A DNA stretch of 64,000 bases from Botryllus schlosseri (lineage: Eukaryota), in contig CM119371.1 in assembly GCA_051294905.1 (NCBI GenBank), forward strand, positions 8,434,001-8,498,000, read 5' to 3'. Shown piece after piece: positions 3,951 to 38,434 of the stretch (its first letter is position 1; each line of letters opens with the position of its first letter). Made by a program: the position numbers and the translations under genes. The notes under the pieces are model-generated. The model did no database searches and was not told where the DNA came from. It saw only the letters and a program-made list of their open reading frames with translations.

Positions 3951-5007
3951 ATATAGTGGGTACTGCGGTTGTGATTGTAATCTTAGAGATCTTCCACTTC
4001 AACAGCTTTTGTAACGAACTTACGTGTTCCCCAAATTTAGTTGGGCAAAATAGAATGTAGAATTTAGATTAGTGCGCATCTCTTTTATCAATGCAATATC
4101 AATAACGATTCCCCAATCTTGTCCGTTTATCACAGTATCAGTGTAGGTAGTTTTGAACTTTGCATCCATTTTGGCGCTAATACTCATGCTGAATTAGTTT
4201 CTCAGGTGGATACGGCTATTATGGAAGCTTTCGACTTTGGGAAATGACGTCTAATATACGTATAATGCCTTTTATCTACCGATCTCATCAAACTATGCAT
4301 TGCATCGCAGATATATCACGCAACAGCAGACGCAAGTGATAGCAGCATGCTCGACATACCTCTTGGAAAGATGAGCGTAGACGCTACTTGTCAATTATTT
4401 GCTGAAAACGCTTATAACCTGTGATATGATGTCCATATCGCCTATCAGAAGGTCAACTTTAACAGCGTGGAAATCGTGATATTTACCTAAATATAATCGA
4501 GATATGCCTGCATTACGGCATAGCGGGTCGGGAGAAATTAGAGGTAAATGAAATCGCTTTAAATTTTTAGTACATGAATCTATCCGGGGAGTAGCCTATT
4601 ATAGATCATTTTTCGCATTCAAGTATTATAGATGACAGCATAAGAAAGTACTAACACGATATAGCAGATCTGCCATTTCTGACTCAAATTGGTTCTCATT
4701 ATAATTTGCGCCTCGTTACCTCCAATGACGATATTGCAGAGTAGCTTGCGGCAACTGCTGGATGAAGGAAGGAAATGGTGAAGAGCGAAAATACGCTACC
4801 GCTAGGCACACCGATCGAGTCCATGGTCTATCTCAGACGCGGCGGAATGAGCGATAGCCCTATTCATTATCATCAACGAACAGAAAATTGTACTTTAAAT
4901 GCGGAAAGCGATCTTTGAAATTAGTAAATCACATACTACTTTTGACTCATTCATTGTAGCCATCTCGTTTTAATTTATATATAGAGTGTTTGATTGGATG
5001 GTTTGTA

Positions 5008-6215
5008 CAGTAATGATTAGGGCAAGTTTTTGCAACTTTTGCAACTTTTTTACAGCCTCCGACAGCTTCCTAGATACTGGGAATCTATGTACTATGATGT
5101 TGTAAGCTGTGTGGAGCGATTTTATTGTGCAACTTTTTACAACTTTTCTCTATTTTTCGTGTCAATTTTACTGCAACTTCTATCAAACATTGCGTAAAAT
5201 GTAAAGGGGTGATTTAAAAACATGCTATATACTACTTTTAGTTATGATTTTATTCTCTTTGATTTGCAAAACAAAGAGCTATATGACGGTTTAGCTGGAT
5301 CTCACTGTTATCTATGCCACAATGGCATGAAAGCAATAAGTTCAACTACCCCCGCCATCCTGCCAAGCACGACCGTGCTCGAGCAATATGTAAAATAGTA
5401 AATAGATCGCTGTATTGATTCTGCCGTTTTAAATTTGAAATAGTTTCCCATTTCACGAACGCCCTGGCGAGACCACCAAAAATTACATTTACAATGGTTC
5501 ATCTTTTTCGGGCTATTGATTTTGTTAACGTTGCCTGGAGTGAGTTTTTCTGTAATGACTTGAGAGACCTAGGGGGTTTGGGGTGTGTTATTCGCAGATA
5601 TTTCGGGAAGGAAGGAAGTGGCGGATGGCGGAAGTTCTTCATACGAACTCAGCGTGAATGAATTATCCACGCGACATTTGCTCGAAGGCCTCTGACGATC
5701 TCGTTGTCGAAGATCACGGCAATCATCAGATCCCGGTTCGTAGTTTTTCGGTTGGAAATTATTCCAGCATTGCATGATTTTTTGCTGTTTTACGGGGGAA
5801 ATGTAATTTTAGGCGGTTTCGTCAGATAGTATTTTTTTGTGGTATTCATGGTGTTTGTCGACTACTATGGTCATTTACACCAGGCCGATATTGCTCATTA
5901 TTTTCCGTAACTGCCGACTTATAGAACGGCCCACCTCTAGGCTTTTTGTAAGACACCGCTTACGCAGATGAGGTGGCGAGGAGGAGCCTAGGTAAACCTC
6001 CAACACTTAGGTATCGGAATTCTGAAGTCGACCGTCAGATAGTTAAATGGAGTTAGGAGAAGTAACAAATTTGACAGCTCTGCAGGAAGTAAGTTATAAA
6101 ATGGAGCCTTTCGAGTATCTTGTATACCCTAATAATTCAACGAAAATTATAAATGCAACTTTTGACTGCAACTTTTGTTAAAATTAAATACAAAAACTTG
6201 CCCTAATCATAACTG
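5008..6215. mobile_element. Non-autonomous Tc1/pogo-type element
   Basis: ~25-bp TIR CAGT(A/T)ATGATTAGGGCAAGTTTTTG flanked by TA on both sides; subterminal GCAACTTTT repeats. Confidence 0.85.
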
Positions 6216-7645
6216 TACGAATAGGTTTATAATTTGATTGTATTATTGTTTAATTGTAAATCAGGTCTCAATTTACATTTTAAATAGTTCATGGATGCAT
6301 GAATTGACAGTATTCTGCATTCCACGACGTTTTGAACGCTTCGAAGGTCTAAAAACTATCATATACTTGACAATACGGTGGTATGTGTATTGTGCTTTGT
6401 CGATATCTGCATTCATACTAATCCTCTGTGGCTTTATGATATATTTGAGTGGAATTACGCGATGGTCAATGCTTCTCAAATTTCAGAGTCTGCCTTCCAG
6501 TATTCCCGATGAGAACAACCGAAAGTTTTGTTTCGGCGCTATTCGTGGATTGTCGACCAACGACAAGATTACATTTCCCAACCACAGGAACAAAATAATG
6601 CCTGTTGTTTGAACCAACAAAATTAGTAAGCAAAAAGCAGCGCAGCAAAGCAAAGACCATTGCATGACATAGGCTCCGTTAGATGTCAGTTTCTAATTGT
6701 CCTAATGTATTCGTCTTTGTGCAGTAACATGCGTACAAATGAATTATTTTACTTCTTCATGAATAAACGATAATTTTTAAATAAACTTTTTCCTTTAAGT
6801 AGCGAGGTTTGACTACATTTTTTGCATATCAGATATCTTCATAACTGGTGCGTTGTTGTTACATCTGTTTCGTGTATATTCATGATGCAACGACACAGTG
6901 GTAACAGTGGGCAAAATCACCGTGTTATGCGTTTTGACAGTAATTTTAGTTGATATGAACATTATTTTTTACGATAATCACAATTTATGAACATTTTAAT
7001 GTATATCTGAGGTTGAAATTACTTCCGGTTCAGAGAATTCAATTTGTGATTATCAAATCTGCGATTTAACCGAGTTAAAATTTCTCGGGAGTAACTATAA
7101 ACGAGTTTTCCGTCCGCCATTATATGGAACCTGGTACATCCGTGAAATCACTGTCGATAACAACATGCAACTCAGCAGTTAGCAATGCAGTTTGGTATAG
7201 TTTACAATTCATACTGCCATGTCTGTGTGCGAAACCTGCGACTAATGTACGGCTAAGCCTATTTTGTGCTACTGATGACAGTACGTGTTCATTCTCTTCT
7301 AATAATTGATTTCAATCGCCGGATTGCAATGGAATCACATGTGTATTGCACTGGTTGCACTGCACCTCGTTTCTCCAACGGTGCTAGTAACATCGGTAGG
7401 CGCATGAAGGTTAACCCAAGATAACCTTTATATTTGAAGCAATTCGCTCTAGATCGGCATTACGTCGTTTTGGAGCAGATTGAGGACCGCAAAGCTGCAG
7501 CATTTGTATAGGTGCGATTCACGATACTTCATGGTTGTTGCAGGATTTATTTTATACCTTAAAACTAACATAAATATATTTACTGCGTCGTTTCTAAGGT
7601 GTCGTCCCGGAAATCTGTCTTCACCAAACGTTTAGAAGTATTGCG

Positions 7646-8590
7646 ATGGCAATCGATTGGATGCGGAGGAAATTGACTTATGTGACCGATCACATATTCC
7701 TGTTGATTGTGGCGTTAATGTTACTGGACACCGCTACAAACATCTACTCCACAATACAGTACTGTACACGCGAAGACCTACTACAAGGAAATGTACCCGC
7801 TATATTGTCAGCATTAGGTGTCATGATTGGTGTCTGCGTAAACACCGTGGTTATCAAACATGTCTGTTTGGCGAAGCAGTTGGCGAACAGCTCGAAGGAA
7901 TGGAAAGGTCTGGTTTATCGTTTTTTGACGACGTGGAAAAACGTACAATGCATGTGTGAATCAATCCCTCACTTATGTATCAACCTCTATCTGCTGTCGA
8001 AGAAAACAGTTCTAGAAATAGAGGACAATTTGTTGACTGAAGCATCGCCCATGATATCCTTCTGGTCAATTTTATTGTCGCTACATGTGCCGTACGAAGA
8101 GTATCTCGAGGCAAAAGGCGTTCAAGCATCTTTCACAGAGAGGTGGTTCGTTCTCGTGGCCAGACTAGGAGTATTCGTTACGAGGATAGCTGTTTTCGTT
8201 CATTTCGCAGTGGTCTTTGACTTCATAGGCGCTTTATTACTTTCCGCTATGTGGTTTTTTCGCTATATTTTCCTGCAATGCCGGATGGGCGAAGATAGTG
8301 ATAATTTTTTATACTGGTTTAAATCGAGGAATGGTGGGTCTACAGTGGCGACTTATTTCATGCTTACGCCTTTTTTGCCGCACAAATGTAGCAAAGGAGG
8401 TGCACTAATATTATTTGTTTTCTTCCTCGATCAAATGGTGGTTGTGTATATGTCTGATGTTTTGCATCAAAGTCAGTCTATTCAACAACAACCTCCGTGT
8501 CTGATCAGTTCTGTAGAAGTTAATTTGGTCAGTATCCTATCCTCTGGTTGCTTGATATTTTCCATAGCTCTCAGTAACATTTCGTCTTAG
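7646..8590 (+). CDS. XK-related (XKR scramblase family) multi-pass membrane protein, 314 aa
   Basis: Uninterrupted ORF with multiple hydrophobic segments; CESIPHLCINLYLL matches the XKR ESxPQLxLQLY motif. A 5' exon cannot be excluded. Confidence 0.75.
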   Translation: MAIDWMRRKLTYVTDHIFLLIVALMLLDTATNIYSTIQYCTREDLLQGNVPAILSALGVMIGVCVNTVVIKHVCLAKQLANSSKEWKGLVYRFLTTWKNVQCMCESIPHLCINLYLLSKKTVLEIEDNLLTEASPMISFWSILLSLHVPYEEYLEAKGVQASFTERWFVLVARLGVFVTRIAVFVHFAVVFDFIGALLLSAMWFFRYIFLQCRMGEDSDNFLYWFKSRNGGSTVATYFMLTPFLPHKCSKGGALILFVFFLDQMVVVYMSDVLHQSQSIQQQPPCLISSVEVNLVSILSSGCLIFSIALSNISS

Positions 8591-9312
8591 ATATCCTGCA
8601 TGACATGATTGCGAATTCACTTCCCTTTTATAGCATCGCCGAAAATAAAATTAATACCAAGCTTGTGTACATTCGTCAGTCTGTATGGCTGAAATGAAAT
8701 AAGTGTGAAATACGTTAGTGGTAACCAGAAGGTATATATGACTATTTACAGACTTCCACAATTGACGCTATACTATACCACACAGTATATATGTTGATCT
8801 CTTGCAGAAAAATTAGGAGTTTTGACTCTCTCATTCAAGTCGTATACAGGCATACATATATGCTACCGCGAATAATTCAGCACTTGTATGGTGTCAAAGT
8901 AACTGCAGCAAAAGATCAAAAACATGTTAAAACACAGCTGTAGCAGATATGGGTGACTGGAAAATACGCAGTCATCATTGCAGACTACAAAAAACCAGCA
9001 GGAACATTATATAAAGGTGTCATGATTAGAAGAACACCCCGCCTGCGTATCAGGTCCGCAACTGAAAATACTTATGAGTGTAGAATGAAAAATGGGTTGG
9101 AAACTGAACATGCGTACTTTACGTTCGCGGTTAGATGCAGATCACCCGAGATTTGAACTAATTTGAATTACCAAATCGATATGATGAAAATTCTACGAAT
9201 CCTGAACTTGAAACTATTTGTTTGGCGGTATATTACAGGAAAAGGCCAATTTGGCTTCAAAACATGGTAGTTGTTTTCATGACGGAAATTAAGCAGGAAG
9301 TTTCTCCGATTT

Positions 9313-10939
9313 TTACACGTCTTTGATGCGTTTGATCGTAGCACTATCTAGATCACACAGTTCAAAAGATAAAATACCGCCAGAAAACGTTTTAGTTGTG
9401 CATTGTGAGAACGTGTTGTTGGTGGATTTCATCACAATGTCAGATATTTTCAACAGCGTGTCGAGGCTGCTAACCCGAGACAACCTTTCCTGCAACCATC
9501 GCAAATTAAAATAGAACTCCTTCGGAACATGTGGCAGCGCTGACGCTGGCAGGACATCAATTTCCACCGATGCACATTCTTCTTCATCTTGCTTCGGCGG
9601 TGCTTTGCGTATCCTCGAATCTGTTCCATACCTTTTCTTTATATGATCAGCTATCTTTATATCTTCCGACATGGACTTGATGTTTGTTCCGAATTTAGAT
9701 CTTTGCAAAACTGACTTATGCAATTTGACTTTTAAGCAGCGGAACTCCTCTGTGGTGGGTGTAGGCCGTGTGTCAGGCAATCGTGTGCCCGAATCAAGAT
9801 TCGCCTTTGTTTCATTTCTACTTTTGGTACTCGTGAAGATTGATTTCTTCTGCGTTCCGCGAACATATGTTTCGAAGCCGTGTCCGCTAGACTCGGCCCA
9901 TCTGTTCTTGTCGACTGCTGGGTCCACACCCTTGGCGGTTACCGGCTTCCGCGTAGTATTGCGAGACGGCGAAAGTTTCCTCTTTCTTGGGTCCTTTTTG
10001 GGGCTTGAAACGTTACGCTGCTTCAAATCTAAATCATAATTTATCATTTTATGCTCTTCGCCCTTCAATTCGCACTTGACAGTTGATCTGGATTTAGTTC
10101 TTCGCAGTGTGGACTTGTGCAATTTCATTTCTAGGCTGCGGAACTTGTCAGGTGCAGGTGCAGGTTTATCATGCGTTATTAACATCCATCGGCCCGAATT
10201 AGGTGTCTCCTGGTTTTCATTCTTACCTCTAGTACTTTCGGAAGTCAAATTATTTTGCGTTCCGCGGATACATTTTTCCAAACAGTGGTAGACTGCGGTA
10301 GACTAGTGGTAGACTGCGGTAGACTTGGCCAAACTTTTCTTGTCGACAGCCACCGCTTCTTTGACGCCAACAGGCTTCAACGCAGTATGGCGAGACGTTC
10401 TGCCTTTTCTTGGTTGATTTTCAATACAATTTAGTACAGAATTATGTGTAGTTCCAGATGCCAATATTTTCAAAGTCGATTCTGCGCGCTGTGAAAGGTT
10501 GAGAAGTTTCTTCGCAGTCGTTTTCGACTGTGCCTTCCCTTTCGTATCCGTTCGGGTGTACTTTCTAACGTCGACCCTTTCTCGTTCTGATATTTGCTTG
10601 CCAGAGACGCCGAACATTTCCGTTTTTTCTTCTTAACTGGTGCTTCATCATTTTGAGTAAGCTATTTTAACATATTTGCTCGAAATGGTGATAATTTTCT
10701 TTTCCGCGTCACATTCAATTTTAAATTATCTTCAGTCCAGCGAAGTACTGACTCGATCAATTCGTGAATCGCTCCCTTAGGTCTGTGGGCGATGCGCACT
10801 TTTGGCCGATGAGCAGCGACTACGACACCTTCCATACTGCTTCCTGTGTGTACGATTCGCAACGTCCAGCTCGACAACTTTTTAATAAATGCGAGCATAT
10901 CGTTACCATTCCCAGAAGACAACTCTACATTGTCTACAA
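9313..10939 (-). pseudogene. Disrupted intronless gene with basic repeated blocks and a C-terminal AF9/ENL ANC1-homology (AHD)-like domain
   Basis: C-terminus LRWLQERLSRV...LLKISDIV...LSFELCDLDSATIKRIKD resembles AF9/ENL AHD (FDFDLCSLDKTTVRKLQ). ORFs 10303-10617 and 9313-10281 are in frame across one TAG. There is a further break near 10620-10662 and a hAT insertion at 10940. Confidence 0.6.
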
Positions 10940-13570: not shown

Positions 13571-14949
13571 AGTTATCAAACATGTCCGTCTGGCGAAGCT
13601 GTTGGCTAACAGCTCGAAGGAATGGAAAGATTTGGTTTATCGTATGACGACGTGGAAACACGTACAATGCACGTGTGAATCAATCCTTCACTAACTAAGG
13701 ATGGTGTGAACCTCTGAAAGGTTCAGGTTCGTGTGAACGCGAACGTGATCTTCATGACGTCACGTTACGTCATATTACTAATTCCAACCAACATTTCAGT
13801 GAAGTGATAGCCTATATTAATGTACAGATTGTACTCGATACCTATAGCGACGACTCGGCGGGCGATATAATGCCGCAATGCTGAAGTACATATTGGCGTT
13901 TTGAACGTCGCCAAATGTATCAACTGGGGAAATCAAATAATGTAATAGTCCCATAGAATCAATATCTTCCGTCGCTTTGCCAACAATTTCACGAGGAGTT
14001 GCATGGGAGTTTAATCTTACGCCTTAACGGTCCACGCCAGACCGGACTATGTATTCGGCGTCTGAGTATTGCTACGTTGATATTGAGCAGAGAGTATAAA
14101 GCGGTTTCTATACTCGCCACCGATTTTACCCCGCCAAGTAGGCCTAATACAGTAGTAGCCGACACCCCAATCGCACGGATTTGGTTTTTATGATACAAAC
14201 ACATATTACATCAACATTGACCACGTACGCCTGCTAGGTTTTTAACGTCAGACAGCGATAAAAATTCCATTGAGTGATTGAATAGACATCATACGCTGAC
14301 TACATGTCCTACATTCTCAACGAAAGATGTTATAATTAAGGTAAAATTGTTAAATATGAAAAAGGTTTACAGTGCAGAACCTAACAAGGTTCGTTTGTGA
14401 ACGCGAACCTCTAAATTTCTGAGGTTGACACACAGAACGCGAACGTGAACCTCACGTTCACACGATCCCTCGTATCAACCTCTATCTGCTGTCAAAGGAC
14501 GAAACAAAAACGAGTCAGGAAATAGAGGACAATCTATTGACTCAAGTACCGCCCATGATATTCATCTGGTCAATTTTGTTTTCGCTACATGTCCCGTACG
14601 AATAGTATCTCGAGGTCAAAGGCATTCAAGCATCTTTCAAAGAGAGGTACCTCGTTCTCGTGGCCGGACAAGGAGTGTTCGTTACGAGCATGGCTGTTTT
14701 CGTTCATTTCACAGTGGTCTTTAAATTCCAGGGAGCTATATTTCATTGCGCTATGTGGTTGTTTCGCTATATTTTCCTGGAATGCTGGATGGGCGAAGAT
14801 TGTGATAATTTTTTATGCAGGTTTAAATCGAGGAATGGTGGGTTTACAGTGGCGACTTATTTCATCATTATGCTTTTTTGCCGTGAAAATGTTGCATCAC
14901 AGTTGTACTAAGATTAGATGTTTTCTTCCTCCATCAACTGGTGGTTGTT
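13571..14949 (+). pseudogene. Degenerate duplicate of the XK-related gene, split by an insertion
   Basis: 13571-13692 matches ~7850-7972 and 14471-14949 matches ~7977-8445 at DNA level, with frameshifting indels. Confidence 0.9.
13696..14470. mobile_element. MITE with GTGAAC/GTTCAC subterminal repeats inserted in the XKR pseudogene
   Basis: Imperfect TIR AGGATGGTGTGAAC / GTTCACACGATCCCT, and the XKR homology resumes directly after it. An inverted copy of its right end starts at ~14949. Confidence 0.75.
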
Positions 14950-16434
14950 AGGAACGGTGTGAACGTGAGGTTCACGTTTGCGTTCTGTGTATGAACCCAA
15001 TAAATTTAGAGGTTCACGTTCACAAACGAACCTTGGTAGGTTCTGCACTGTGAACCTTTTTCAAATATTACAATTTTGACTTTATTACAACATCTTTGGT
15101 TGGAATTTATTGAATTTTAACTGCGGGCCACTCTTTGCAAGCATATAAAAATAACACTAAACGATCATGCACCTTGACAATCTAAAACCTATAACTTGCT
15201 TTGTTACAAAGGTTTTCTCGAATATTAAGCGAGCTCGACCGGCAATCACACAACATCAAGACTTATCACCATGTTGTTGGCTCAGCAGGTATTTGCACAT
15301 TTATCAGATAAAGGACATGGGACGCATATGATTATTGTAGTAAAGCTTTTCACGGACAAATTTGATAGCTTTATACTCCTCTTTTATCTTGGTAGAATGA
15401 CCAAGCAGTACAGGAAGAATACATTTCCGTTGTTCGAGAAGTATATTGTTTAGGCTTGGAAAACTACTCTTTTGACAAACAAGATCTCGCATCAAGTCAT
15501 TTTTATACTGATTGAATAAGTGAGGACGACATGAGGTTTATTTTCAGACAATTATCAGATGGTGCACAGTATACACGCAAAGTCTACTATTTACTTTCTA
15601 CCATGTGAAATATTAAGAGGTCAATAAAGAAATTTGTTTTTATGGGTATACGTATCTCCTAAATTAGAGTAAATATAACAAAACCAGTATGATATTCATA
15701 ATCGCCAACCTTGAATACCCTCGAAAGACTCCTAGATGTTTTGACAATTTGTTTTCTTCTTTTTGTTGAACAGTGTAAAGATCGCATTAAACGCACGACA
15801 GTTCCACATACGGGTTGCTTTTTCTGCAGGGGCGAGCAACAAACGGTCCGCGACGGGATTTTGAGCGGCCCGCAGAGAGTTTCCCGGCTTACATGATAAT
15901 GTCGCCAACCTCCACAGTCTGATGCTGCAATCCCTCACTACTGGCTTATCAAATCACATGAAATTATAGTGACTTCTTCCAAGTTATTTCGTAGTTCTTT
16001 GTTTTCGTTGTGGTATGCGTTTATGCGTCACTGAATGAATCCGTGATTGCCTAGCTGACAACGATTGTCATGAAAGACTTGTTCTCCTTCGGTCTTCATA
16101 CATTTGCGAGAAAACATATTGGACCATCAACATGAATAAAATAACGCTGCTTTTCAATATAACTGATTTTTACGGCTTTCTACGTCCGTTTAAAGAACTT
16201 GTGGACAACTTTTATCGACAACAGATGTCTCCTTAGACGTCAAGAGCTGATGAAGTAGGCCGACATTACGTTAATAAATTCATTGAATACTATTTTTGAT
16301 CTCAATGCTTTAAACCTAAAATTTACATTGCATGCCATAAGACCCTTGTATACGTTCTAGATTAGCAATTAATGTATCTATTCAGTAATCCGGCCCGCTA
16401 TTGCAAAGTATCTCGATATCAAACGATTCAACAT

Positions 16435-24826: not shown

Positions 24827-24899
24827 TGCTAACTGAAGACTGTATTAATCGGGATCATAAGTAGTATATAGGATCGGTCGCGAACTAACGTTTTTTTGC

Positions 24900-25420
24900 A
24901 TGGGTTCTTATGGGCCCGCTCGCACATCGTATTGAAAACTCGTGTTGGCATATCGTACTTTTAGACCCCCCCTATCGCTCGCACATCGTAATGTGTTCTT
25001 ATGGGTGCGCTCGCACATCGTACTTTCAAGTATAGGCTGCGGCGGTGACTCGTATTGAAAACTCGTGTTGGCATATCGTACTTTCGGGTGTAGGCATCTC
25101 TCGCACATCGTACTTTCGCATGTCGTACTTTCGCGTATAGGCTGTGTTGGTGATTCGCTATGTGTTCTTATGGTCGCGTCGGCATATCGTACTTTCGGGT
25201 ATTGGCATCTCTCGCACGTCGTACTTTCGCATGTCGTGCTTTCGCGTATAGGTTGTGTTGGTGATTCGCTATGTGTTCTTATGGGTGCGGTCGTGAATCG
25301 CCCTTTCGGGTATAGGCATCTCTCGCATGTCGTACTTTCGCGTATAGGCTGTGGTGGTGATTCGCCATGTGTTCTTATGGGCGCGGTCGTGATTCGTACT
25401 TTCAGGTATCTCTCGCGTGG
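24900..25420. repeat. Subterminal modular repeat array (left arm)
   Basis: Shuffled modules CGTACTTTCG, TCGCACAT/TCGCATGT, ATGTGTTCTTATGG and GTATAGGCTG. Confidence 0.9.
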
Positions 25421-25863
25421 TGTTGAATATGTACGAGTCGCCAACAATAACCGCGCAAACGGAAACGTGGCTTGCAAGAGGATTAAGCAGTGCGACCTAT
25501 ATTTCGAATGACCTGCGCGCTGAATTATTTCTCGTCCAGCCGCTACTATCGATTATTACACTAGACCGGTCAGTGTGAAATAGTTTGATCGTAAATTATG
25601 ATATATGACGTCGTAGTTTAGTCGTGTCAAATGACCGATCGTGTTCTCTTTCCTCGCTATTGATTGCTACCTGAATAATACTTTCGGCTTATTCGCTGTT
25701 TCGCGCCTACAGAATAGTCTGCTGTTCATAGTCACAGATTCATCGCGATAGCACAATTTTCACACCTCGATCAGTAGAACAACACCACACTAACGCAGTT
25801 GGCGAATCACATAGGTCATACATTTTACGCGAAATATTGTATTGTGGTATACAAATATGCAAA

Positions 25864-26500
25864 CTATTCTTTCAATTCAACAAGTCTAGTTAACGAATCG
25901 ATTTTCAAGCTGCCGACACAGTTTTTAACACGAGTGAGTTGATATTTCTTCCCGGGTACGAGCGAGGCTTTGTTCCATTGATCCAAAACCACCTCACCAG
26001 TATCATCCTTCAATGTAAAACTGTATAATTTCAACTCCTTTCCGGCCCCAGAATTGACCATCTTCTCCTCTCGAGAAACACAAGTAGCGGCGATCGAAAC
26101 GTATTCATCTTTATTCCCGTATACCGATTCGCAGGTCAATAATGGGTATTCTTCAGTCGTATGTCTCGATTTTCCATGCGTGGTTACTGACGAAGCCCGT
26201 CCCAGTAATACAGCAGGTTTTCCAGTAAACTTGTCAATTTGGACCCAACCGGATTTGACCATGAGTTTTTTTTCGTTTGGCGAATGCTTTCTCAATGTTC
26301 CCGAACAATTCACGATTGAAACACGTGAAAGATATCTCTTCGTTATTACCGTCGATGAATATACCTTTGAGATATTGGCTAACGCCACCTCTTTTGGGTG
26401 ATGAGACGAATTTGACGCCGACGTGAAAATTTGAAGTTGCTCCGACTTGCATAGTGTTGACGCTGTTCGATGTCATATCGTTTGATAAAGTGGGAGTCAT
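25864..26500 (-). pseudogene. Tandem OB-fold (RPA1/SSB-like) gene, left-arm copy, with a +1 frameshift
   Basis: Mirror image of 36521-37157; T8 run at 26266-26273. Confidence 0.7.
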
Positions 26501-29500
26501 CAGTGTAACTCACTACACAAATCAAGTTGAATCGTATTTGAATGTATTGATTCGACCCAACTCAAATCCTTTGACAAATCCTATTAACGCGATCTGTTGA
26601 ATCGAACGTAACCTGAATATTACTGACGCCAACATTCACCCGCATCGGATCATTCACACATTCCACGTCGGTGTTTTAACACTTATAGAATCAATACCAA
26701 CTATCTCTAACCCGATAATATTCAATCATTTTGGTAATTTGCCAACTTTAAATCCATTCGCGGGATGTACTAAAGGTAAATCCAAATAATCCAGAATGAA
26801 ATATTTGGACTTTGACATTGCGTGAATTGAAATAGGTTTGACAAACATGACTACCAACTTTCACCCAGTCACATTTTAAGATTATACTTTGAAACAATCC
26901 TTGAAACTGACAACTCTATTCACGACTCCGTTCCCGTTTGTAAAATAGAGTTTCAGAAATACTATCACTATGACAACTCAACATTTTAACATCTCGCCAT
27001 GCACAAACGAGTAAAATACAAAAACCTTGGTAAGTCAATCCGTTTGTAGTAACTCACCAAACCAAAACAAAAAGTGTCCGTATGAAAAGTAGACAAGACT
27101 ACGCGAGTAATCACTACAACCCACAAACATACCAACTCAGTTGTATCCATATCCCATCTTTTTTATTCAACTGTAAGATGAAGTAATTACTACTTGGCGC
27201 GCGGTTTGAGATTAACACATTACATTTGAGTATACGAGATTTGAATGTCTGACCAACGTAGTTGAGAATTCTTACAATCGAACGATGGTGTTATATTCAA
27301 AGTTATCATGCTGTGAACATAAGGATTGACGCATTGATTTGACATATGAGATTTGTAATAGTTGATCATTACTTGATTATTAAATTATGACATTATTAGA
27401 CCAGGGTTGTGTTGAAGGTTATTACGATACCAACAAACTTTTCAGAAACATTGTTATTAACATATCGATTTGTAAAACTAGATTAACGTGTCTGAAATGT
27501 TTTGATTGGGAAGATTAAGCCGTGTTCGTAAAAACCACGCAGCGTATTGTGGAAATCAGGAAATAATTTACAAATGTAATTGTCTCCAGTAACCAAGACT
27601 AAAGATGAAACAACAATTTTCTTTGTTGAACAATAACCGGTACAATACTTTATCGTCGTAATCAGCAGTGAGAATTGAAACACTTTCGCACATTATCCGG
27701 CGTCAAGATATCACACTAGGTGAATTGACATATCGCCGCTTGAATAATACCTAATCCGTTCGAACCATTTCACATACTTTGATCATTACAAAAGTAAATT
27801 GTGATATGTTTGTTAGATGCATTCAATTCAGTTAGAAGTGTCTAGTGCCCAACACTCGTAATATCAAAAAAGTACTTGCTACACTGTTATTTGCTAAACG
27901 TGTTTTGCATTGTTGTTCATTTGTAGTATTGATTGAAATTGTTCTTGAACCCTCAAATAATAATTCCCGACATGAAACCAAGCCGCTGAAAGTCGTTACC
28001 ATCACGAAGATACAATGTGCACGATGTTTGTCAAATGTGTCCTACCTGGCCAACAGAAAACAATTTTCACTCACTCGAAATGAAACCAATGTGATGGTCT
28101 CCATTCGATATTTTGTTTGTGTCAAATACTTTGCAATGAACACATTTGCGTGGTTGAGCTTTACATCATCTAGCTGTTATTTGTAAATCAAGATTTCGGT
28201 AAACTTGTAAATGTATCGTTTAACTAACCGACATTTAGTGATTGGGAAACATACCAGACGATACACATCCATCTCCGAAATACTTCATTGATCTTAATTT
28301 CCATCATCGTGATAATCGAAGTACATTTCTTTCGAATTCGTAACAACCGACTATGACATGATAAATTTTTGACAAGTTATGCTTAGAAGATTGGTTGCAT
28401 ATCGCGAAAAATAATATACCACTCATATTGATGCTGTTACTCCATTGATCGATATTTTCAAACGAGTAAAATTTATTACTTGAGTTTCTCCGCTTAATGT
28501 AAATGTAAACTCAGCCGTCTTTTAACATCAGAAAGACATTGATAAAAAGTAGGCAATCAAACGCTACAAGTTTAACTTTTGTAGGTTGTGTATGATTACC
28601 CCGCGCAACTCATTTCTCACCAAAGGTATATGAAATATATTCATGGTACACGAAAATACTCGATATTCTCTACGAACCTGTACAATGATTGGTGACGCTT
28701 TCAAACTGTTTCGATACCTCAAGACCTTTATTGTCTGAATGGTTGGTCATGTATCTTGATAATCGAGTAGTTCAACACACAACTAGTATTAACAGAAACA
28801 CCAGAGTTGCTTACACAAAAGTTTGTAAGTGCACAGTATGCGAATACCATGTGTAAGTCCAGCACAATTGGGGTATCCATCCGAGTTTAGTTAACACAAT
28901 TTACGACACCAAGGTCACCTCATCTTTCGTAAGACAACAAACCAACCAAGGCTTCAGGATATGTCCATGTCATAGCAATAAATCAGCTACTCCAACAACG
29001 GAATACATATGCTTACATCTTACACACAAATCAATCTACTTTGCTAACGAAAAGTGCCGAGCCATCACATGGTTGTCCTCACAACAATACAACTAAAACA
29101 TACTATCATACAAAATGGCTGTTATAGTCACCAACGGTACATCGTACAAGTAACAAGTCTCGAGAATCCAGTTACTCAAAAAACGTGAAAGTATTTTTAC
29201 ACCAAGTCGTTATGTTGACGAACGCGTATATTGTAATATCATGATCGATTTGCATTCGTTGGCTGCAAAAATGTCACTACTCTAAATAATTATATCTCAC
29301 TCAAAAGCATACTTGTCACCATTCGTTTTCATCAAGCACGAGTTCAAGAAACTTACTACGACATGAATTGTTATTTTTATGTTGTGTAAATAGTTAATAA
29401 TTAATTTTAGTAACACTATATCAACATCACGGAGTTGTGCGAATAGATTTACACGTAGTCTTGTGGTTTTAATCGAAGCACACAGCGTGTTCTAATGTAG

Positions 29501-29719
29501 AGTCATCTCTATTGTACAACAACTCGGTAATCGAAATGTATTAACATTTAAACAGCGATCCTGTTTCGTCACGCAAAAAATATCTTTACTGTCGCAACAC
29601 TCTGATACTCTGCACAAGATGTGTAAATCCTTTTCACACTCATAATAATACACTAACGGGATACCGACGTCAAGCAACAACGTTTACCAACATCACTGAC
29701 ACTGAACATACGATACCTA

Positions 29720-30330
29720 CCCAAGTAAAAATATCATTTTCACCACCAGGTCAGCCGTTACCTGTGTACAATTACCATTTGCCCTTGGGGGTCTAGCGTT
29801 ACCCGAGTAACAAATCCTTTTTCACTTGGAAATATATTTTTTCTCTGGGTAACAAACGTTTTTCACTTGGAAATATATTTTTTCCCTGGGTAACAATCCT
29901 TTTTCACTTGGAAATATATTTTTTCCCAGAGTAAGAAACCATTTTCACTTGTAAATATATTTTTTCCCCGGGTAACAAACCTTTTTCACTTGGAAATATA
30001 TTTTTTTCCCTGAGCAGCAAACCTTTTTCACTTGGAAATATATTTTTCCCAGAGTAAGAAACCATTTTCACTTGGAAATATATTTTTTTCCCTGAGCAAC
30101 AAACAATTTTCACGCGGAAATATAGTTTTTCCCCGGGTAACAAACCTTTTTCGCTTGGAAAGATATTTTTCCCTGAGCAACAAACCATTTTCACTCGGTG
30201 GTCCGTCGTTTACCTGAGTAAAAATATCATTTTCCTCTGGAGATCTGGCGTTTACCCAGTGTAACAACACATTTTCTCTTGGTCATCTAGCTTTTCCTAG
30301 AGTAACAAAACCATTTTCATTTTGAAATCT
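29720..30330. repeat. ~38-40-bp minisatellite (left arm)
   Basis: Unit approximately TTTTCACTTGGAAATATATTTTTTCCCNGRGTAACAAACC; about ten good copies plus degenerate flanking copies. Confidence 0.92.
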
Positions 30331-32690
30331 GACAAACACACCTGACAATTTGATATTTTTGTATATTGTTACAACGGATAGCGACAAAATATACACCAAC
30401 AACAACTCCAATACATTTGTGTAATCGCATATTCACTTGTGCTGATGCAACCCATCAAAATCATCGGTTACCCACATGCAATGTGTTGTTGTACATCGAC
30501 GTTTATGTTTTTGGAAAATTGGACAATAGGCTTCGATAGTTCTGTGATGTCCGGGTTCGTGCTTTGGATTTTCCAGAGTCAAAATGTCTGAATAAAACAC
30601 CTCCTTGACGATGGTTGGTATGTGGATAACGGTTGGATTTATGTCACCCATCGCGATAACAACTCCAGGTCGAGTTTTCCCCCGCGTGTTTACTATATTG
30701 TGTCTTTATTGGTCATGTATGTCTCGACATTCAGTTTGAAATCGGAAACCCTGATAAAGTATGTAACCGGATCCGGATATCAACTCTGAATCGATAAACC
30801 AATGAACAATATTCAAAGTAAACATGTTACACCCTGTGTTTCCACGAAAAAATACCATCCAGACATACGTCGCGCTTGTTTGCCCACATCAGTATACGCA
30901 TAAATGGAGGTGTGTGACATTGCATGCAATGTGTTGGTATACAAACATCGATCCACAGACATTATCATAGCCGGTAGTTTTGATGTAGATCGAATGTCAT
31001 CACACCCGATAACAATGTCATACCAATAAGCCACATTGCAATGACTCTGAGTCAATCTGAAGCAGGACATACAGACACCGTTCACTGATTTACTCGATGG
31101 CTTTATCGCGTTGTAACATTACAAGATAGTCATGACCCTATCTGCAGACGGACCACCCAGACCAATTGGATACATCGGTCAATATTCATCGTGTTGTCGA
31201 CACCGAAGTTTTCTGCTGAGACTACAGCGTTTGATCCAGGTGAATTATCGAAGTACGGTGCTCGAAATGATTGCGATCAGTCTTTCAGTCACGATGCATG
31301 GATGTCGCTACTCCCACATAACGACTCCAGATAAATATCGTGAGCAGTGATTCTGCAAATCTTGGACTGATATTGTGATCCAATAAGGTGTGTTTCTGTG
31401 GAATCAAGACTGCAATCGTACACCACAATAGAACACTACCTCGCGATTTCACACACAATCATAAAACACATCGTCGTAAGGGTCCAGTTCGTCTGGCAAC
31501 ATTTCGAAACGGTCGTCGCCACAAGAGATTGGTATCATTTTGAAACGACATCGTCACAAGTCTATTGACGTCGATTCTGTTGGTCATGTCAATCCGTTTC
31601 ACAATCCACCGTTTTTCAACTCCCCGCACCATAGTGTTACGACACAGACAAGAAGCGTCGGTGGAAATAATAAAACACGGAAAGCACACTTTGGTGTTAT
31701 TTGACATGGATTTTACACCCGACGAACCTTACATTCGAGCGATGCATTGGAATGACGCTTGTATTATTGACGTAGAAGGAACAGAAATGTATCGATTTAT
31801 TGGTTTCGTACATATCCAACTAAAACCAGGGTATATGATTGTGCATGGTTCGCATATTCGACTGTGAACGCCCAATTGGTATATGTTGTACAGTTCACTT
31901 TCACCGTCGTGCGAATAACCCATGTTAGGGTTCCATGTTTGTGTGTCTGTATGTCATGCTTCAGATTGACTCAGAGTCATTGCAATGTGGCTTATTGGTA
32001 TGACATTGTTATCGGGTGTGATGACATTCGATCTACATCAAAACTACCGGCTATGATAATGTCTGTGGATCGATGTTTGTATACCAACACATTGCATGCA
32101 ATGTCACACACCTCCATTTATGCGTATACTGATGTGGGCAAACAAGCGCGACGTATGTCTGGATGGTATTTTTTCGTGGAAACACAGGGTGTAACATGTT
32201 TACTTTGAATATTGTTCATTGGTTTATCGATTCAGAGTTGATATCCGGATCCGGTTACATACTTTATCAGGGTTTCCGATTTCAAACTGAATGTCGAGAC
32301 ATACATGACCAATAAAGACACAATATAGTAAACACGCGGGGGAAAACTCGACCTGGAGTTGTTATCGCGATGGGTGACATAAATCCAACCGTTATCCACA
32401 TACCAACCATCGTCAAGGAGGTGTTTTATTCAGACATTTTGACTCTGGAAAATCCAAAGCACGAACCCGGACATCACAGAACTATCGAAGCCTATTGTCC
32501 AATTTTCCAAAAACATAAACGTCGATGTACAACAACACATTGCATGTGGGTAACCGATGATTTTGATGGGTTGCATCAGCACAAGTGAATATGCGATTAC
32601 ACAAATGTATTGGAGTTGTTGTTGGTGTATATTTTGTCGCTATCCGTTGTAACAATATACAAAAATATCAAATTGTCAGGTGTGTTTGTC

Positions 32691-33301
32691 AGATTTCAAA
32701 ATGAAAATGGTTTTGTTACTCTAGGAAAAGCTAGATGACCAAGAGAAAATGTGTTGTTACACTGGGTAAACGCCAGATCTCCAGAGGAAAATGATATTTT
32801 TACTCAGGTAAACGACGGACCACCGAGTGAAAATGGTTTGTTGCTCAGGGAAAAATATCTTTCCAAGCGAAAAAGGTTTGTTACCCGGGGAAAAACTATA
32901 TTTCCGCGTGAAAATTGTTTGTTGCTCAGGGAAAAAAATATATTTCCAAGTGAAAATGGTTTCTTACTCTGGGAAAAATATATTTCCAAGTGAAAAAGGT
33001 TTGCTGCTCAGGGAAAAAAATATATTTCCAAGTGAAAAAGGTTTGTTACCCGGGGAAAAAATATATTTACAAGTGAAAATGGTTTCTTACTCTGGGAAAA
33101 AATATATTTCCAAGTGAAAAAGGATTGTTACCCAGGGAAAAAATATATTTCCAAGTGAAAAACGTTTGTTACCCAGAGAAAAAATATATTTCCAAGTGAA
33201 AAAGGATTTGTTACTCGGGTAACGCTAGACCCCCAAGGGCAAATGGTAATTGTACACAGGTAACGGCTGACCTGGTGGTGAAAATGATATTTTTACTTGG
33301 G
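32691..33301. repeat. ~38-40-bp minisatellite (right arm)
   Basis: Mirror of 29720-30330 (repeats of GGAAAAAATATATTTCCAAGTGAAAA). Confidence 0.92.
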
Positions 33302-36300
33302 TAGGTATCGTATGTTCAGTGTCAGTGATGTTGGTAAACGTTGTTGCTTGACGTCGGTATCCCGTTAGTGTATTATTATGAGTGTGAAAAGGATTTACAC
33401 ATCTTGTGCAGAGTATCAGAGTGTTGCGACAGTAAAGATATTTTTTGCGTGACGAAACAGGATCGCTGTTTAAATGTTAATACATTTCGATTACCGAGTT
33501 GTTGTACAATAGAGATGACTCTACATTAGAACACGCTGTGTGCTTCGATTAAAACCACAAGACTACGTGTAAATCTATTCGCACAACTCCGTGATGTTGA
33601 TATAGTGTTACTAAAATTAATTATTAACTATTTACACAACATAAAAATAACAATTCATGTCGTAGTAAGTTTCTTGAACTCGTGCTTGATGAAAACGAAT
33701 GGTGACAAGTATGCTTTTGAGTGAGATATAATTATTTAGAGTAGTGACATTTTTGCAGCCAACGAATGCAAATCGATCATGATATTACAATATACGCGTT
33801 CGTCAACATAACGACTTGGTGTAAAAATACTTTCACGTTTTTTGAGTAACTGGATTCTCGAGACTTGTTACTTGTACGATGTACCGTTGGTGACTATAAC
33901 AGCCATTTTGTATGATAGTATGTTTTAGTTGTATTGTTGTGAGGACAACCATGTGATGGCTCGGCACTTTTCGTTAGCAAAGTAGATTGATTTGTGTGTA
34001 AGATGTAAGCATATGTATTCCGTTGTTGGAGTAGCTGATTTATTGCTATGACATGGACATATCCTGAAGCCTTGGTTGGTTTGTTGTCTTACGAAAGATG
34101 AGGTGACCTTGGTGTCGTAAATTGTGTTAACTAAACTCGGATGGATACCCCAATTGTGCTGGACTTACACATGGTATTCGCATACTGTGCACTTACAAAC
34201 TTTTGTGTAAGCAACTCTGGTGTTTCTGTTAATACTAGTTGTGTGTTGAACTACTCGATTATCAAGATACATGACCAACCATTCAGACAATAAAGGTCTT
34301 GAGGTATCGAAACAGTTTGAAAGCGTCACCAATCATTGTACAGGTTCGTAGAGAATATCGAGTATTTTCGTGTACCATGAATATATTTCATATACCTTTG
34401 GTGAGAAATGAGTTGCGCGGGGTAATCATACACAACCTACAAAAGTTAAACTTGTAGCGTTTGATTGCCTACTTTTTATCAATGTCTTTCTGATGTTAAA
34501 AGACGGCTGAGTTTACATTTACATTAAGCGGAGAAACTCAAGTAATAAATTTTACTCGTTTGAAAATATCGATCAATGGAGTAACAGCATCAATATGAGT
34601 GGTATATTATTTTTCGCGATATGCAACCAATCTTCTAAGCATAACTTGTCAAAAATTTATCATGTCATAGTCGGTTGTTACGAATTCGAAAGAAATGTAC
34701 TTCGATTATCACGATGATGGAAATTAAGATCAATGAAGTATTTCGGAGATGGATGTGTATCGTCTGGTATGTTTCCCAATCACTAAATGTCGGTTAGTTA
34801 AACGATACATTTACAAGTTTACCGAAATCTTGATTTACAAATAACAGCTAGATGATGTAAAGCTCAACCACGCAAATGTGTTCATTGCAAAGTATTTGAC
34901 ACAAACAAAATATCGAATGGAGACCATCACATTGGTTTCATTTCGAGTGAGTGAAAATTGTTTTCTGTTGGCCAGGTAGGACACATTTGACAAACATCGT
35001 GCACATTGTATCTTCGTGATGGTAACGACTTTCAGCGGCTTGGTTTCATGTCGGGAATTATTATTTGAGGGTTCAAGAACAATTTCAATCAATACTACAA
35101 ATGAACAACAATGCAAAACACGTTTAGCAAATAACAGTGTAGCAAGTACTTTTTTGATATTACGAGTGTTGGGCACTAGACACTTCTAACTGAATTGAAT
35201 GCATCTAACAAACATATCACAATTTACTTTTGTAATGATCAAAGTATGTGAAATGGTTCGAACGGATTAGGTATTATTCAAGCGGCGATATGTCAATTCA
35301 CCTAGTGTGATATCTTGACGCCGGATAATGTGCGAAAGTGTTTCAATTCTCACTGCTGATTACGACGATAAAGTATTGTACCGGTTATTGTTCAACAAAG
35401 AAAATTGTTGTTTCATCTTTAGTCTTGGTTACTGGAGACAATTACATTTGTAAATTATTTCCTGATTTCCACAATACGCTGCGTGGTTTTTACGAACACG
35501 GCTTAATCTTCCCAATCAAAACATTTCAGACACGTTAATCTAGTTTTACAAATCGATATGTTAATAACAATGTTTCTGAAAAGTTTGTTGGTATCGTAAT
35601 AACCTTCAACACAACCCTGGTCTAATAATGTCATAATTTAATAATCAAGTAATGATCAACTATTACAAATCTCATATGTCAAATCAATGCGTCAATCCTT
35701 ATGTTCACAGCATGATAACTTTGAATATAACACCATCGTTCGATTGTAAGAATTCTCAACTACGTTGGTCAGACATTCAAATCTCGTATACTCAAATGTA
35801 ATGTGTTAATCTCAAACCGCGCGCCAAGTAGTAATTACTTCATCTTACAGTTGAATAAAAAAGATGGGATATGGATACAACTGAGTTGGTATGTTTGTGG
35901 GTTGTAGTGATTACTCGCGTAGTCTTGTCTACTTTTCATACGGACACTTTTTGTTTTGGTTTGGTGAGTTACTACAAACGGATTGACTTACCAAGGTTTT
36001 TGTATTTTACTCGTTTGTGCATGGCGAGATGTTAAAATGTTGAGTTGTCATAGTGATAGTATTTCTGAAACTCTATTTTACAAACGGGAACGGAGTCGTG
36101 AATAGAGTTGTCAGTTTCAAGGATTGTTTCAAAGTATAATCTTAAAATGTGACTGGGTGAAAGTTGGTAGTCATGTTTGTCAAACCTATTTCAATTCACG
36201 CAATGTCAAAGTCCAAATATTTCATTCTGGATTATTTGGATTTACCTTTAGTACATCCCGCGAATGGATTTAAAGTTGGCAAATTACCAAAATGATTGAA

Positions 36301-36520
36301 TATTATCGGGTTAGAGATAGTTGGTATTGATTCTATAAGTGTTAAAACACCGACGTGGAATGTGTGAATGATCCGATGCGGGTGAATGTTGGCGTCAGTA
36401 ATATTCAGGTTACGTTCGATTCAACAGATCGCGTTAATAGGATTTGTCAAAGGATTTGAGTTGGGTCGAATCAATACATTCAAATACGATTCAACTTGAT
36501 TTGTGTAGTGAGTTACACTG

Positions 36521-37157
36521 ATGACTCCCACTTTATCAAACGATATGACATCGAACAGCGTCAACACTATGCAAGTCGGAGCAACTTCAAATTTTCACGT
36601 CGGCGTCAAATTCGTCTCATCACCCAAAAGAGGTGGCGTTAGCCAATATCTCAAAGGTATATTCATCGACGGTAATAACGAAGAGATATCTTTCACGTGT
36701 TTCAATCGTGAATTGTTCGGGAACATTGAGAAAGCATTCGCCAAACGAAAAAAAACTCATGGTCAAATCCGGTTGGGTCCAAATTGACAAGTTTACTGGA
36801 AAACCTGCTGTATTACTGGGACGGGCTTCGTCAGTAACCACGCATGGAAAATCGAGACATACGACTGAAGAATACCCATTATTGACCTGCGAATCGGTAT
36901 ACGGGAATAAAGATGAATACGTTTCGATCGCCGCTACTTGTGTTTCTCGAGAGGAGAAGATGGTCAATTCTGGGGCCGGAAAGGAGTTGAAATTATACAG
37001 TTTTACATTGAAGGATGATACTGGTGAGGTGGTTTTGGATCAATGGAACAAAGCCTCGCTCGTACCCGGGAAGAAATATCAACTCACTCGTGTTAAAAAC
37101 TGTGTCGGCAGCTTGAAAATCGATTCGTTAACTAGACTTGTTGAATTGAAAGAATAG
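36521..37157 (+). pseudogene. Tandem OB-fold (RPA1 DBD-A/B or SSB-like) gene, ~211 aa if one A is removed from the A8 run at 36748-36755
   Basis: Domain 1: IFIDGNNEEISFTCFNRE...MVKSGWVQIDK (compare RPA1 LVDESGEIRATAFNEQ...YFSKGTLKIANK). Domain 2: FTLKDDTGEVVLDQWN...PGKKYQLT (OB-fold DxTGxIxLxxW motif). Two overlapping ORFs join at the A-run. Confidence 0.7.
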
Positions 37158-37600
37158 TTTGCATATTTGTATACCACAATACAATATTTCGCGTAAAATG
37201 TATGACCTATGTGATTCGCCAACTGCGTTAGTGTGGTGTTGTTCTACTGATCGAGGTGTGAAAATTGTGCTATCGCGATGAATCTGTGACTATGAACAGC
37301 AGACTATTCTGTAGGCGCGAAACAGCGAATAAGCCGAAAGTATTATTCAGGTAGCAATCAATAGCGAGGAAAGAGAACACGATCGGTCATTTGACACGAC
37401 TAAACTACGACGTCATATATCATAATTTACGATCAAACTATTTCACACTGACCGGTCTAGTGTAATAATCGATAGTAGCGGCTGGACGAGAAATAATTCA
37501 GCGCGCAGGTCATTCGAAATATAGGTCGCACTGCTTAATCCTCTTGCAAGCCACGTTTCCGTTTGCGCGGTTATTGTTGGCGACTCGTACATATTCAACA

Positions 37601-38121
37601 CCACGCGAGAGATACCTGAAAGTACGAATCACGACCGCGCCCATAAGAACACATGGCGAATCACCACCACAGCCTATACGCGAAAGTACGACATGCGAGA
37701 GATGCCTATACCCGAAAGGGCGATTCACGACCGCACCCATAAGAACACATAGCGAATCACCAACACAACCTATACGCGAAAGCACGACATGCGAAAGTAC
37801 GACGTGCGAGAGATGCCAATACCCGAAAGTACGATATGCCGACGCGACCATAAGAACACATAGCGAATCACCAACACAGCCTATACGCGAAAGTACGACA
37901 TGCGAAAGTACGATGTGCGAGAGATGCCTACACCCGAAAGTACGATATGCCAACACGAGTTTTCAATACGAGTCACCGCCGCAGCCTATACTTGAAAGTA
38001 CGATGTGCGAGCGCACCCATAAGAACACATTACGATGTGCGAGCGATAGGGGGGGTCTAAAAGTACGATATGCCAACACGAGTTTTCAATACGATGTGCG
38101 AGCGGGCCCATAAGAACCCAT
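37601..38121. repeat. Subterminal modular repeat array (right arm)
   Basis: Repeated CGAAAGTACG, CATAAGAACACAT and ATGTGCGAG modules; mirror of the left arm. Confidence 0.9.
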
Positions 38122-38434
38122 GCAAAAAAACGTTAGTTCGCGACCGATCCTATATACTACTATCATATGGTGCTCATATCAAAAGCATTCAGAGATATCA
38201 CACGTATAAAGCTATATTATTGCGAGAGTGCCTTACTTGTATCTTACACCTTACTTACGGACAGTCACGCAATCAGTTCTTCCGAATCGGGATAATAGCA
38301 TCTGCGACAGAGAACACTGTAAACTGATATCATTTGGTTAACTTTTAGCCACTCAACCTCCAATTCTTCGACAGTAACAAAGTTGCGCTACAATACAGGC
38401 GGCAGTAATCTGTCTAACAGCCGGGAATGTGAAT

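Follow-up and report, generated by a model that had tools for sequence, protein, structure and literature searches.

A palindromic element and its outward-facing gene

The window analysed here is a 64,000-nt stretch of the Botryllus schlosseri genome (G000:C1:8434001-8498000), taken from a 495-Mb assembly. An inverted-repeat search of the window located a 13,302-bp element at 24860-38161, composed of two 6,219-nt arms (left, 24860-31078; right, 31943-38161) that are 100% complementary and lie on either side of a central spacer, or loop, of 864 bp (31079-31942), which is single within the element and high-copy genome-wide. The element starts with AGTAGTATATAGG and ends with its complement, so that its termini read AGTAGT...ACTACT, and a 6-bp duplicate, ATCATA, borders it on both sides (24854-24859 and 38162-38167). 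A 6-bp target-site duplication (TSD) combined with terminal inverted repeats (TIRs) starting 5'-AG is reportedly a hallmark of the transposons called Polintons or Mavericks. Each arm carries one copy of a gene predicted to encode two tandem OB folds (hereafter the OB gene, encoding the OB protein), and the origin and role of this gene are our subject.

The right-arm copy lies at 36521-37157 (+), where the list of open reading frames (ORFs) gives two ORFs, 36521-36787 (88 amino acids) and 36633-37157 (174 amino acids), both on the plus strand and overlapping in different frames. They are one gene in two frames, broken in a homopolymer A-run (36748-36755) that has 8 bases in both arms of the window element but 7 in each of four further copies from the genome; the 7-A copies read through as a single ORF of 211 amino acids. 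Since the arms are 100% complementary, the left arm holds the mirror copy at 25864-26500 (-), with the same break in its A-run at 26266-26273. An earlier reading of the window, made from its letters alone (the sequence-only reading), had proposed that the two ORFs fuse into about 211 amino acids, that there is one outward-pointing copy per arm and that the gene has no intron. The first two points were found as described, and the gene likewise lacks an intron: its frame is uninterrupted and as long as those of distant relatives.

The 8-base A-run in the window may be real or a homopolymer miscall. Sequencing data over the ORF consisted of contigs from four runs. In the best DNA run, the depths are those of contigs from a repeat with many copies; in contigs from three of the runs, RNA only by guess, the A-run is one base shorter. 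We left the window frame unrepaired and carried out all protein work on natural open-frame copies, among them P0001, the unaltered translation of L003:1572-2204.

Besides the OB gene, no arm ORF had a credible Pfam match (10 ORFs scanned), in agreement with the sequence-only reading that this gene is the only recognisable cargo. A match to LBR_tudor was dismissed, as it sits in a tandem-repeat ORF in which no single stretch passes alone. We found no ORF or remnant of the polymerase pPolB or of an rve integrase in the arms or spacer, no RepHel-like ORF in the element and no Rfam match in the window. Outside the 1,643-bp modules at the element's ends, the arm interior and spacer showed no similarity to Maverick proteins or DNA.

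The OB gene in palindromic and autonomous Mavericks

A protein search of the genome returned 347 candidates, and all 150 of those scored have a frame without internal stops at 94-100% identity; at least 150 genomic copies carry an open frame of 203-211 codons. Scored copies were ranked by protein score, which favours intact copies and makes the set something other than an unbiased census, and the window copies are not among the 150. When the search was made with P0003, a distant database homolog, 148 of 150 scored copies were stop-free (276 candidates). By identity to P0001, the natural ORFs of this genome form four lineages: A (86-100%), B (~56%), C (24-25%) and D (21-23%).

The ratio of nonsynonymous to synonymous differences per site (pN/pS; pairwise Nei-Gojobori, 200 codons) was 0.19 among 24 palindromic-element copies (276 pairs) and 0.21 among 20 unpaired copies whose upstream sequence is of autonomous type (190 pairs); pairs drawn across the two sets gave 0.20 (480 pairs). 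Within lineages B and D, it was 0.12-0.28 and 0.17-0.23, respectively. These copies were drawn from protein-ranked lists, which biases pN downward and counts against taking the ratios at face value, but a five-fold ratio at a pS of 0.07-0.09 is unlikely to arise from ranking bias alone. Because all 150 copies scored in the first search are open and pN/pS is about 0.2, the OB gene lies far beyond a chance ORF, and these comparisons indicate that it is a real, multi-copy gene under purifying selection. An antisense open frame over the gene (139-160 amino acids) was taken as a by-product because pN/pS favours the sense frame. In 30 sampled pairs of palindromic copies, identity was 97.3% in the coding sequence, 96.5% in the 400-nt 5' flank and 91.8% in the 400-nt 3' flank; the earlier claim that conservation of the gene greatly exceeds that of the remaining arm is only partly borne out.

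Ninety-six of the 150 scored copies form 48 divergent (-,+) pairs, the layout of the window element, and 43 of the 48 are spaced at 9.3-12.7 kb (median ~11.4 kb). Perfect 6-bp TSDs flank the palindrome in 4/4 resolvable copies, the arms of a fifth pair having extended past the fetched loci, and the recurrence of TSD-flanked copies genome-wide rules out the palindrome as an assembly artefact. Within one element, the arms are 99.90-100% identical (five pairs: L002/L001, L004/L003, L006/L005, L008/L007 and L021/L022), whereas the same regions diverge by 2-8% between elements. These values fit arms that would be made identical in each round of replication or insertion, as could happen through copy-back or panhandle intermediates when replication is protein-primed, or arms that would be homogenised in place by gene conversion. 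Snap-back defective adenovirus genomes offer an analogy for the first possibility, and the family could serve as a natural system for studying how protein-primed replicons generate and homogenise long inverted ends. The 864-bp spacer has 968 genomic candidates, and most of the 40 places scored (93-100% identity) lie outside the listed OB-bearing pairs.

The other 54 scored copies are unpaired, and the open frame has 217 codons in 37 of them. Three unpaired loci of autonomous type share with the window element only its coordinates 1-1643 (92-94%, blastn), homology stopping 2 nt upstream of the OB-gene ATG. This shared terminal module (right arm, 36519-38161; left arm, 24860-26502) comprises the terminus, subterminal tandem repeats with 96/111-bp units (37612-37958, mirrored at 25063-25409; Tandem Repeats Finder) and the OB gene. 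The large inverted arms of the window element include the module with its origin-bearing terminus, and the element therefore has two copies of the gene.

Inward of the OB gene, the two unpaired loci examined carry a full virus-like gene set, including several ORFs of no known family. Their pPolB is 1,138-1,300 amino acids long (PF03175, 31.6 bits; cut-off 25.8), the integrase has rve (60.1 bits) and Chromo (35.7 bits) matches, and a putative P-loop ATPase has weak AAA matches, one of them above cut-off (RNA_helicase, 22.8 versus 21.5). The two elements span 15.3 and 16.5 kb, and their TIRs measure 668 and 777 bp (99.1% and 97.9% identical); the termini read AGTAGT, and the 6-bp TSDs match at 5/6 and 6/6 positions. 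In both, the OB gene is single-copy, just inside one TIR, pointing outward and divergent from pPolB. It adjoins pPolB divergently in lineages B, C and D too, where pPolB is 68%, 37% and 37% identical to that of lineage A; across the four lineages, the pPolB proteins are ~36% identical at the extremes. Homologs thus occupy the place that the sequence-only reading had raised for them, beside pPolB and integrase genes, in full-length Mavericks belonging to four divergent lineages of this genome, and the OB gene is a Maverick/Polinton gene. A genome scan with PF03175 gave no match although pPolB genes are present; the scan was insensitive, and its controls gave no match either.

The window element resembles adintovirus-like Polintons/Mavericks in its AG...CT termini, 6-bp TSD and TIRs, and in having full-length relatives with pPolB, an rve-chromo integrase and an ATPase. 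It differs from autonomous Mavericks in its 6.2-kb arms as against TIRs of 668-777 bp, in its lack of core genes and in having only 1,643 bp per end in common with them. Core genes are confined to the autonomous relatives, with which it shares the end module, and it is therefore a palindromic, 'snap-back'-like derivative of Mavericks that is itself non-autonomous.

Several further observations were made at these loci. One divergent pair of OB genes is only ~3.8 kb apart, start to start (G000:C6:13366047-13370316), and may be a much shorter palindromic derivative. At L029:503-1540 (G000:C11:4997313-4999846), a 346-amino-acid open frame contains what seems to be a partial tandem duplication of the OB gene, with extra OB-domain sequence in one frame. 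In lineages A (L012:1409-2299, +) and B (L045:846-1742, +), the OB gene is separated from pPolB by an ORF of ~297 amino acids that belongs to no known family, the two ORFs being 39% identical. Of the 31-mers sampled from window positions 36300-37400, at least half are shared with a run whose label gives a second organism (organism B) and with a seawater metagenome run, so that copies almost identical in sequence are also present beyond the data sets of the source organism.

A near-orphan protein with a predicted tandem OB fold

Only two database relatives of the OB protein were found in a library of 1.84 billion representatives, P0002 (97% identity) and P0003 (27%, E 1.6e-5). A word-indexed search of 5.8 billion proteins returned the same two only, by single query and by profile, with P0003 at 24% by BLASTP and at 22-25% in the lineage alignments. 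No longer or fused form was found in the large protein databases, which is weak evidence; P0003 as query found nothing in metagenome or viral contigs, and a look-up of the P0002 and P0003 clusters returned no names or context. Six palindromic copies (L048, L053, L057, L058, L060 and L062) are without the first ATG, and their start would be the Met equivalent to residue 9. This residue may be the true start codon; P0002 begins there too.

The OB-domain profile PF01336 matched the query at 12.6 bits (cut-off 27, E 0.14) and matched three of nine family members, the best at E 0.009. Pfam matches to Adeno_E1B_55K (E 0.11), TAXi_C and RuvA_N were treated as noise, and matches in PDB were set aside as chance, those by sequence being to enoyl-CoA hydratase (E>0.6) and that by profile to one globin. 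A genome scan with PF16900 matched two host loci and zero element copies. One of the two is the host RPA70 of 604 amino acids (L088, 108 bits); the RPA70-like gene here (L088:862-2673, -; G000:C11) is a single uninterrupted ORF with no intron. The second match (33.8 bits) lies in a 476-amino-acid open frame at C6:26279363-26279632. Because sequence searches yield almost nothing, the OB protein appears to be neither a fragment of host RPA1 nor Helitron cargo, and, as far as these searches reach, it belongs to a near-orphan family, adding to the known protein families one with two database relatives among 1.8-5.8 billion proteins.

Across family members that are 21-25% identical, 12 residues are invariant, including Y43, F61, W175 and Y186, and position 161 is aromatic in all members aligned. 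The conserved aromatics fall in strand b2 and at the end of b3 in each OB domain, and the invariant ones may correspond to the base-stacking residues of human RPA70. A profile comparison with host RPA70 (hhalign) aligned residues 152-177 with the L12-b2-b3 region of DBD-A (35% over 26 columns, E 1e-3, probability 20%), setting Y159 and W175 opposite aromatics of the host domain.

AlphaFold2 gave an unusable model from the single sequence (pLDDT 35.4), and with a 21-row alignment of natural copies it reached a pLDDT of 87.3 and a pTM of 0.80. In the latter model, domain 1 (residues ~20-112; 36578-36857, +) is a five-stranded barrel (strands 22-32, 42-49, 55-60, 77-88 and 95-99) with a helix (63-75) between strands 3 and 4, as in a classical OB fold. 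The second barrel (residues ~118-211; 36873-37154, +) has strands at 133-149, 155-165, 168-175, 185-194 and 205-209. Foldseek found 105 PDB matches at E<=0.001, led by RPA70 in 4gop_C (2.8e-11) and 1jmc_A (8.4e-11), followed by Teb1 AB, HIN-200, POT1, TEBP and LEF-3. Whole-chain alignment with VIA matched 1jmc_A at Z 14.6 over 197 residues, with a root-mean-square deviation (rmsd) of 7.5. Taken alone, residues 10-117 matched the Sulfolobus single-stranded-DNA-binding protein (SSB) 1o7i (Z 13.0, rmsd 2.7 over 99 residues), and residues 118-211 matched the archaeal OB domain 2k75 (Z 13.0, rmsd 2.1 over 91 residues) and Teb1 OB-B (Z 11.8). The nearest ESM Atlas clusters, a lead only, are archaeal RPA-like OB proteins (score 0.95, 184 shared features).

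The OB protein, of ~24 kDa, is thus predicted to consist of two tandem OB folds arranged like RPA70 DBD-A/B, in keeping with the double OB fold of the sequence-only reading. The likeness to RPA70 DBD-A/B (1jmc; 4gop chain C) lies in two tandem OB folds of similar size that are the best structural match in both aligners, in the local sequence resemblance in L12-b2-b3 and in the aromatics of b2 and the end of b3. The OB protein differs from RPA70 in having no significant sequence similarity to it, a length of ~211 amino acids and no N-terminal OB-F, DBD-C zinc domain or partner subunits, and in being encoded by a mobile-element gene beside pPolB, the host RPA70 being encoded elsewhere.

In a library of viral structures, there were 25 matches at E<=0.001, with baculovirus LEF-3 first and phage SSBs also present. 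LEF-3 (PDB 7yny, BFVD), the leading class (E 2e-7 to 1e-4), is like the OB protein a virus-encoded OB-fold protein, but it is larger (273-680 amino acids among the matches) and its TM scores are low (0.27-0.44). It binds single-stranded DNA (ssDNA), and baculoviruses are not known to use protein-primed replication. Adenovirus DBP, phi29 p5 and the Bam35 SSB are not among the fold matches listed, which does not show that their folds differ.

Candidate roles of the OB protein

The replication of Polintons/Mavericks is believed to follow the scheme of adenoviruses and phi29, in which strand displacement is protein-primed. The SSBs of phi29, Bam35 and adenovirus stimulate synthesis, and the displaced strand is coated by proteins such as DBP, p5, B35SSB and LEF-3. 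Because the same RPA-core-like gene adjoins pPolB in full-length elements, we consider the OB protein to be probably the Mavericks' own SSB, coating the strand displaced in protein-primed replication by pPolB. The polymerase would copy the linear element from its protein-primed ends, displacing one strand; the tandem-OB protein would coat that strand, and the coat would prevent snap-back of the TIRs, and of the 6-kb arms in palindromes, and would stimulate processive synthesis. phi29 p5, Bam35 B35SSB, PRD1 P12 and adenovirus DBP resemble it in this proposed role on the displaced strand and in a gene placed in the replication module near the polymerase, and they differ from it in the canonical tandem-OB architecture predicted for the protein described here. 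No match to these four proteins in fold or sequence was seen, in searches that were not aimed at them specifically.

The suggestion of the sequence-only reading that the gene might provide an SSB for a Polinton-like lineage gains support from the predicted fold, the pPolB synteny and the exclusion of a host RPA1 or Helitron origin. A selected, RPA-shaped gene beside pPolB would fill the SSB gap in the Maverick replication module, and the protein would offer a directly testable handle on Maverick replication. SSBs encoded by viruses and transposons are already known; the present case would be one with a canonical tandem OB, from a eukaryotic element that replicates by protein priming.

Beyond the downward bias in pN, several findings weigh against this assignment. 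No sequence profile, PF01336 and PF16900 included, reaches its curated threshold for the OB protein, nor was the protein matched to an OB protein in PDB by sequence or profile search; support for the double OB fold comes from the predicted structure and its fold matches, the sequence profiles giving nothing above threshold. Tandem-OB proteins other than general SSBs score nearly as well in VIA (HIN-200, Z ~13; POT1, 13.0; BRCA2, 13.1), and as these lie within ~1.5 Z units of RPA70, the fold class is secure and the subclass is not. The three runs that yielded ORF-bearing contigs were guessed to be RNA and do not demonstrate transcription. The window element has a broken frame in both arms, and the gene is therefore dispensable in cis for at least some mobilised or retained copies. 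Finally, a second giant palindrome, L091+L090 (G000:C8:18189400-18203399), has no OB gene. Its arms, of at least 4,522 bp, are 99.8% identical, it shares the central ~7 kb of the window element (coordinates 3191-10112, 88.8%), and it has a Maverick-type terminus and subterminal repeats like those of the window element, but the homology skips ~715-1644 and resumes at 1645.

The last two findings bear on why a non-autonomous element carries the gene, a matter on which the SSB assignment is compatible with a further explanation. Autonomous Mavericks and the palindrome might exchange the terminal module again and again, and this exchange, not any need of the palindrome or of its hairpin-prone single strands, would preserve the palindrome's OB gene, an account to which we give a chance not far short of even. 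In an ORF tree of 44 copies, palindromic and unpaired copies are fully mixed (14 label changes versus a shuffled mean of 14.8), and although 22 of the 41 inner branches are unresolved, the well-supported branches force at least four label changes. The mixed tree, together with the OB-less palindrome's boundary, which falls at the same coordinate as that of the shared module (1643/1645), indicates that the terminus, subterminal repeats and OB gene behave as an exchangeable end cassette. Given such exchange, the presence of the gene in the palindrome may owe more to end-swapping than to the need of a hairpin-prone element, and the window copy, broken in both arms, points in the same direction. 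The relevance to a 6-kb hairpin that the sequence-only reading had suggested is weakened by the OB-less palindrome with Maverick ends and by the broken frame in both window arms. On the other hand, at least 48 OB-bearing palindromes are found among the 150 scored copies, and the pN/pS of 0.19 in palindromic copies is as low as that of unpaired autonomous-type copies.

Joining the SSB assignment to end exchange gives a broader picture, which we offer tentatively and regard as rather doubtful in its entirety. Mavericks of this clade would encode a canonical tandem-OB SSB, the first canonical OB-fold SSB in any protein-primed replicon, on a mobile end cassette that moves repeatedly between autonomous Mavericks and giant snap-back palindromic parasites; the parasites would be copied by pPolB, and their 6-kb self-complementary displaced strands would be kept replicable by a double dose of SSB. 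No OB-fold or RPA-like SSB in Polinton/Maverick/adintovirus elements is described in the literature searched (PMC8502044, PMC11071296, PMC12220804, PMC6431247, PMC4981718, PMC11071308, PMC11131425 and PMC8276246), which lacks most subscription journals, and within that literature a Polinton tandem-OB gene appears to be undescribed. In adintoviruses, 'Oncoid' genes lie upstream of PolB, and there are conserved but unnamed classes termed 'Adintoc' (PMC8502044); the latter could already include the tandem-OB family.

Among other roles for the SSB candidate, that of a sequence- or structure-specific end binder comparable to POT1, TEBP or Teb1 seems unlikely. Such a protein would recognise single-stranded termini or subterminal repeats, and it might serve to tag the origin, to shield the ends, or to bring in pPolB or the terminal protein. 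The best structural matches include POT1 (Z 13.0), Teb1 AB and Oxytricha TEBP, and the gene is coupled to the terminus and subterminal repeats in one exchangeable 1.64-kb module; however, RPA70 DBD-A/B ranks first in both aligners and RPA70 DBD-A is the sole local sequence match. The termini and subterminal repeats also vary between lineages while the fold is retained, and the OB-less palindromic relative has similar termini without the gene.

We regard as quite improbable a double-stranded-DNA binder or host-interaction factor of the HIN type, which would coat or condense element DNA or interfere with host DNA sensing or repair. The HIN proteins IFI16, AIM2, p202 and p204 do align with the whole protein at Z 12.5-13.4 and at a lower rmsd than RPA70 (5.3-6.0 versus 7.5), and the isoelectric point of P0001, 9.3, would suit such a role, but that of its homolog P0003 is acidic, at 5.6. 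By Foldseek E-value, RPA70 is ahead of HIN by roughly two orders of magnitude, the place beside pPolB suggests a replication module, and there is neither a HIN sequence match nor a pyrin partner. HIN domains are not known outside mammals.

Helitrons have RepHel, no TIRs and no TSD, and their RPA is recognisably RPA-derived and often fused or adjacent to RepHel. The window element differs from them in its perfect TIRs, 6-bp TSDs, pPolB/integrase relatives and near-orphan protein sequence. The predicted fold is RPA-like, and Helitrons are known to carry RPA-like domains on a eukaryotic DNA transposon with single-stranded intermediates (PMC6431247), but a captured host RPA1 fragment or Helitron-type cargo with no role for the element has hardly any chance of being correct and is already largely refuted, given that PF16900 matches the two host loci and no element copies, that the match to host RPA70 spans 26 columns and RPA in PDB goes unseen by sequence, that pPolB synteny is kept in four lineages despite the divergence of their pPolB, that pN/pS is ~0.2, and that the ends are TIRs with 6-bp TSDs rather than Helitron ends.

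Two repeat features of the window lie apart from the OB gene. In the arm interior, which is non-coding, Tandem Repeats Finder identified a tandem array of 41/42 bp (32703-33219, mirrored at 29774-30318). Outside the element, an unrelated short inverted repeat at 14318-14470 and 14950-15102, with 153-nt arms that are 87% complementary and 479 nt apart, is possibly a small TIR element.

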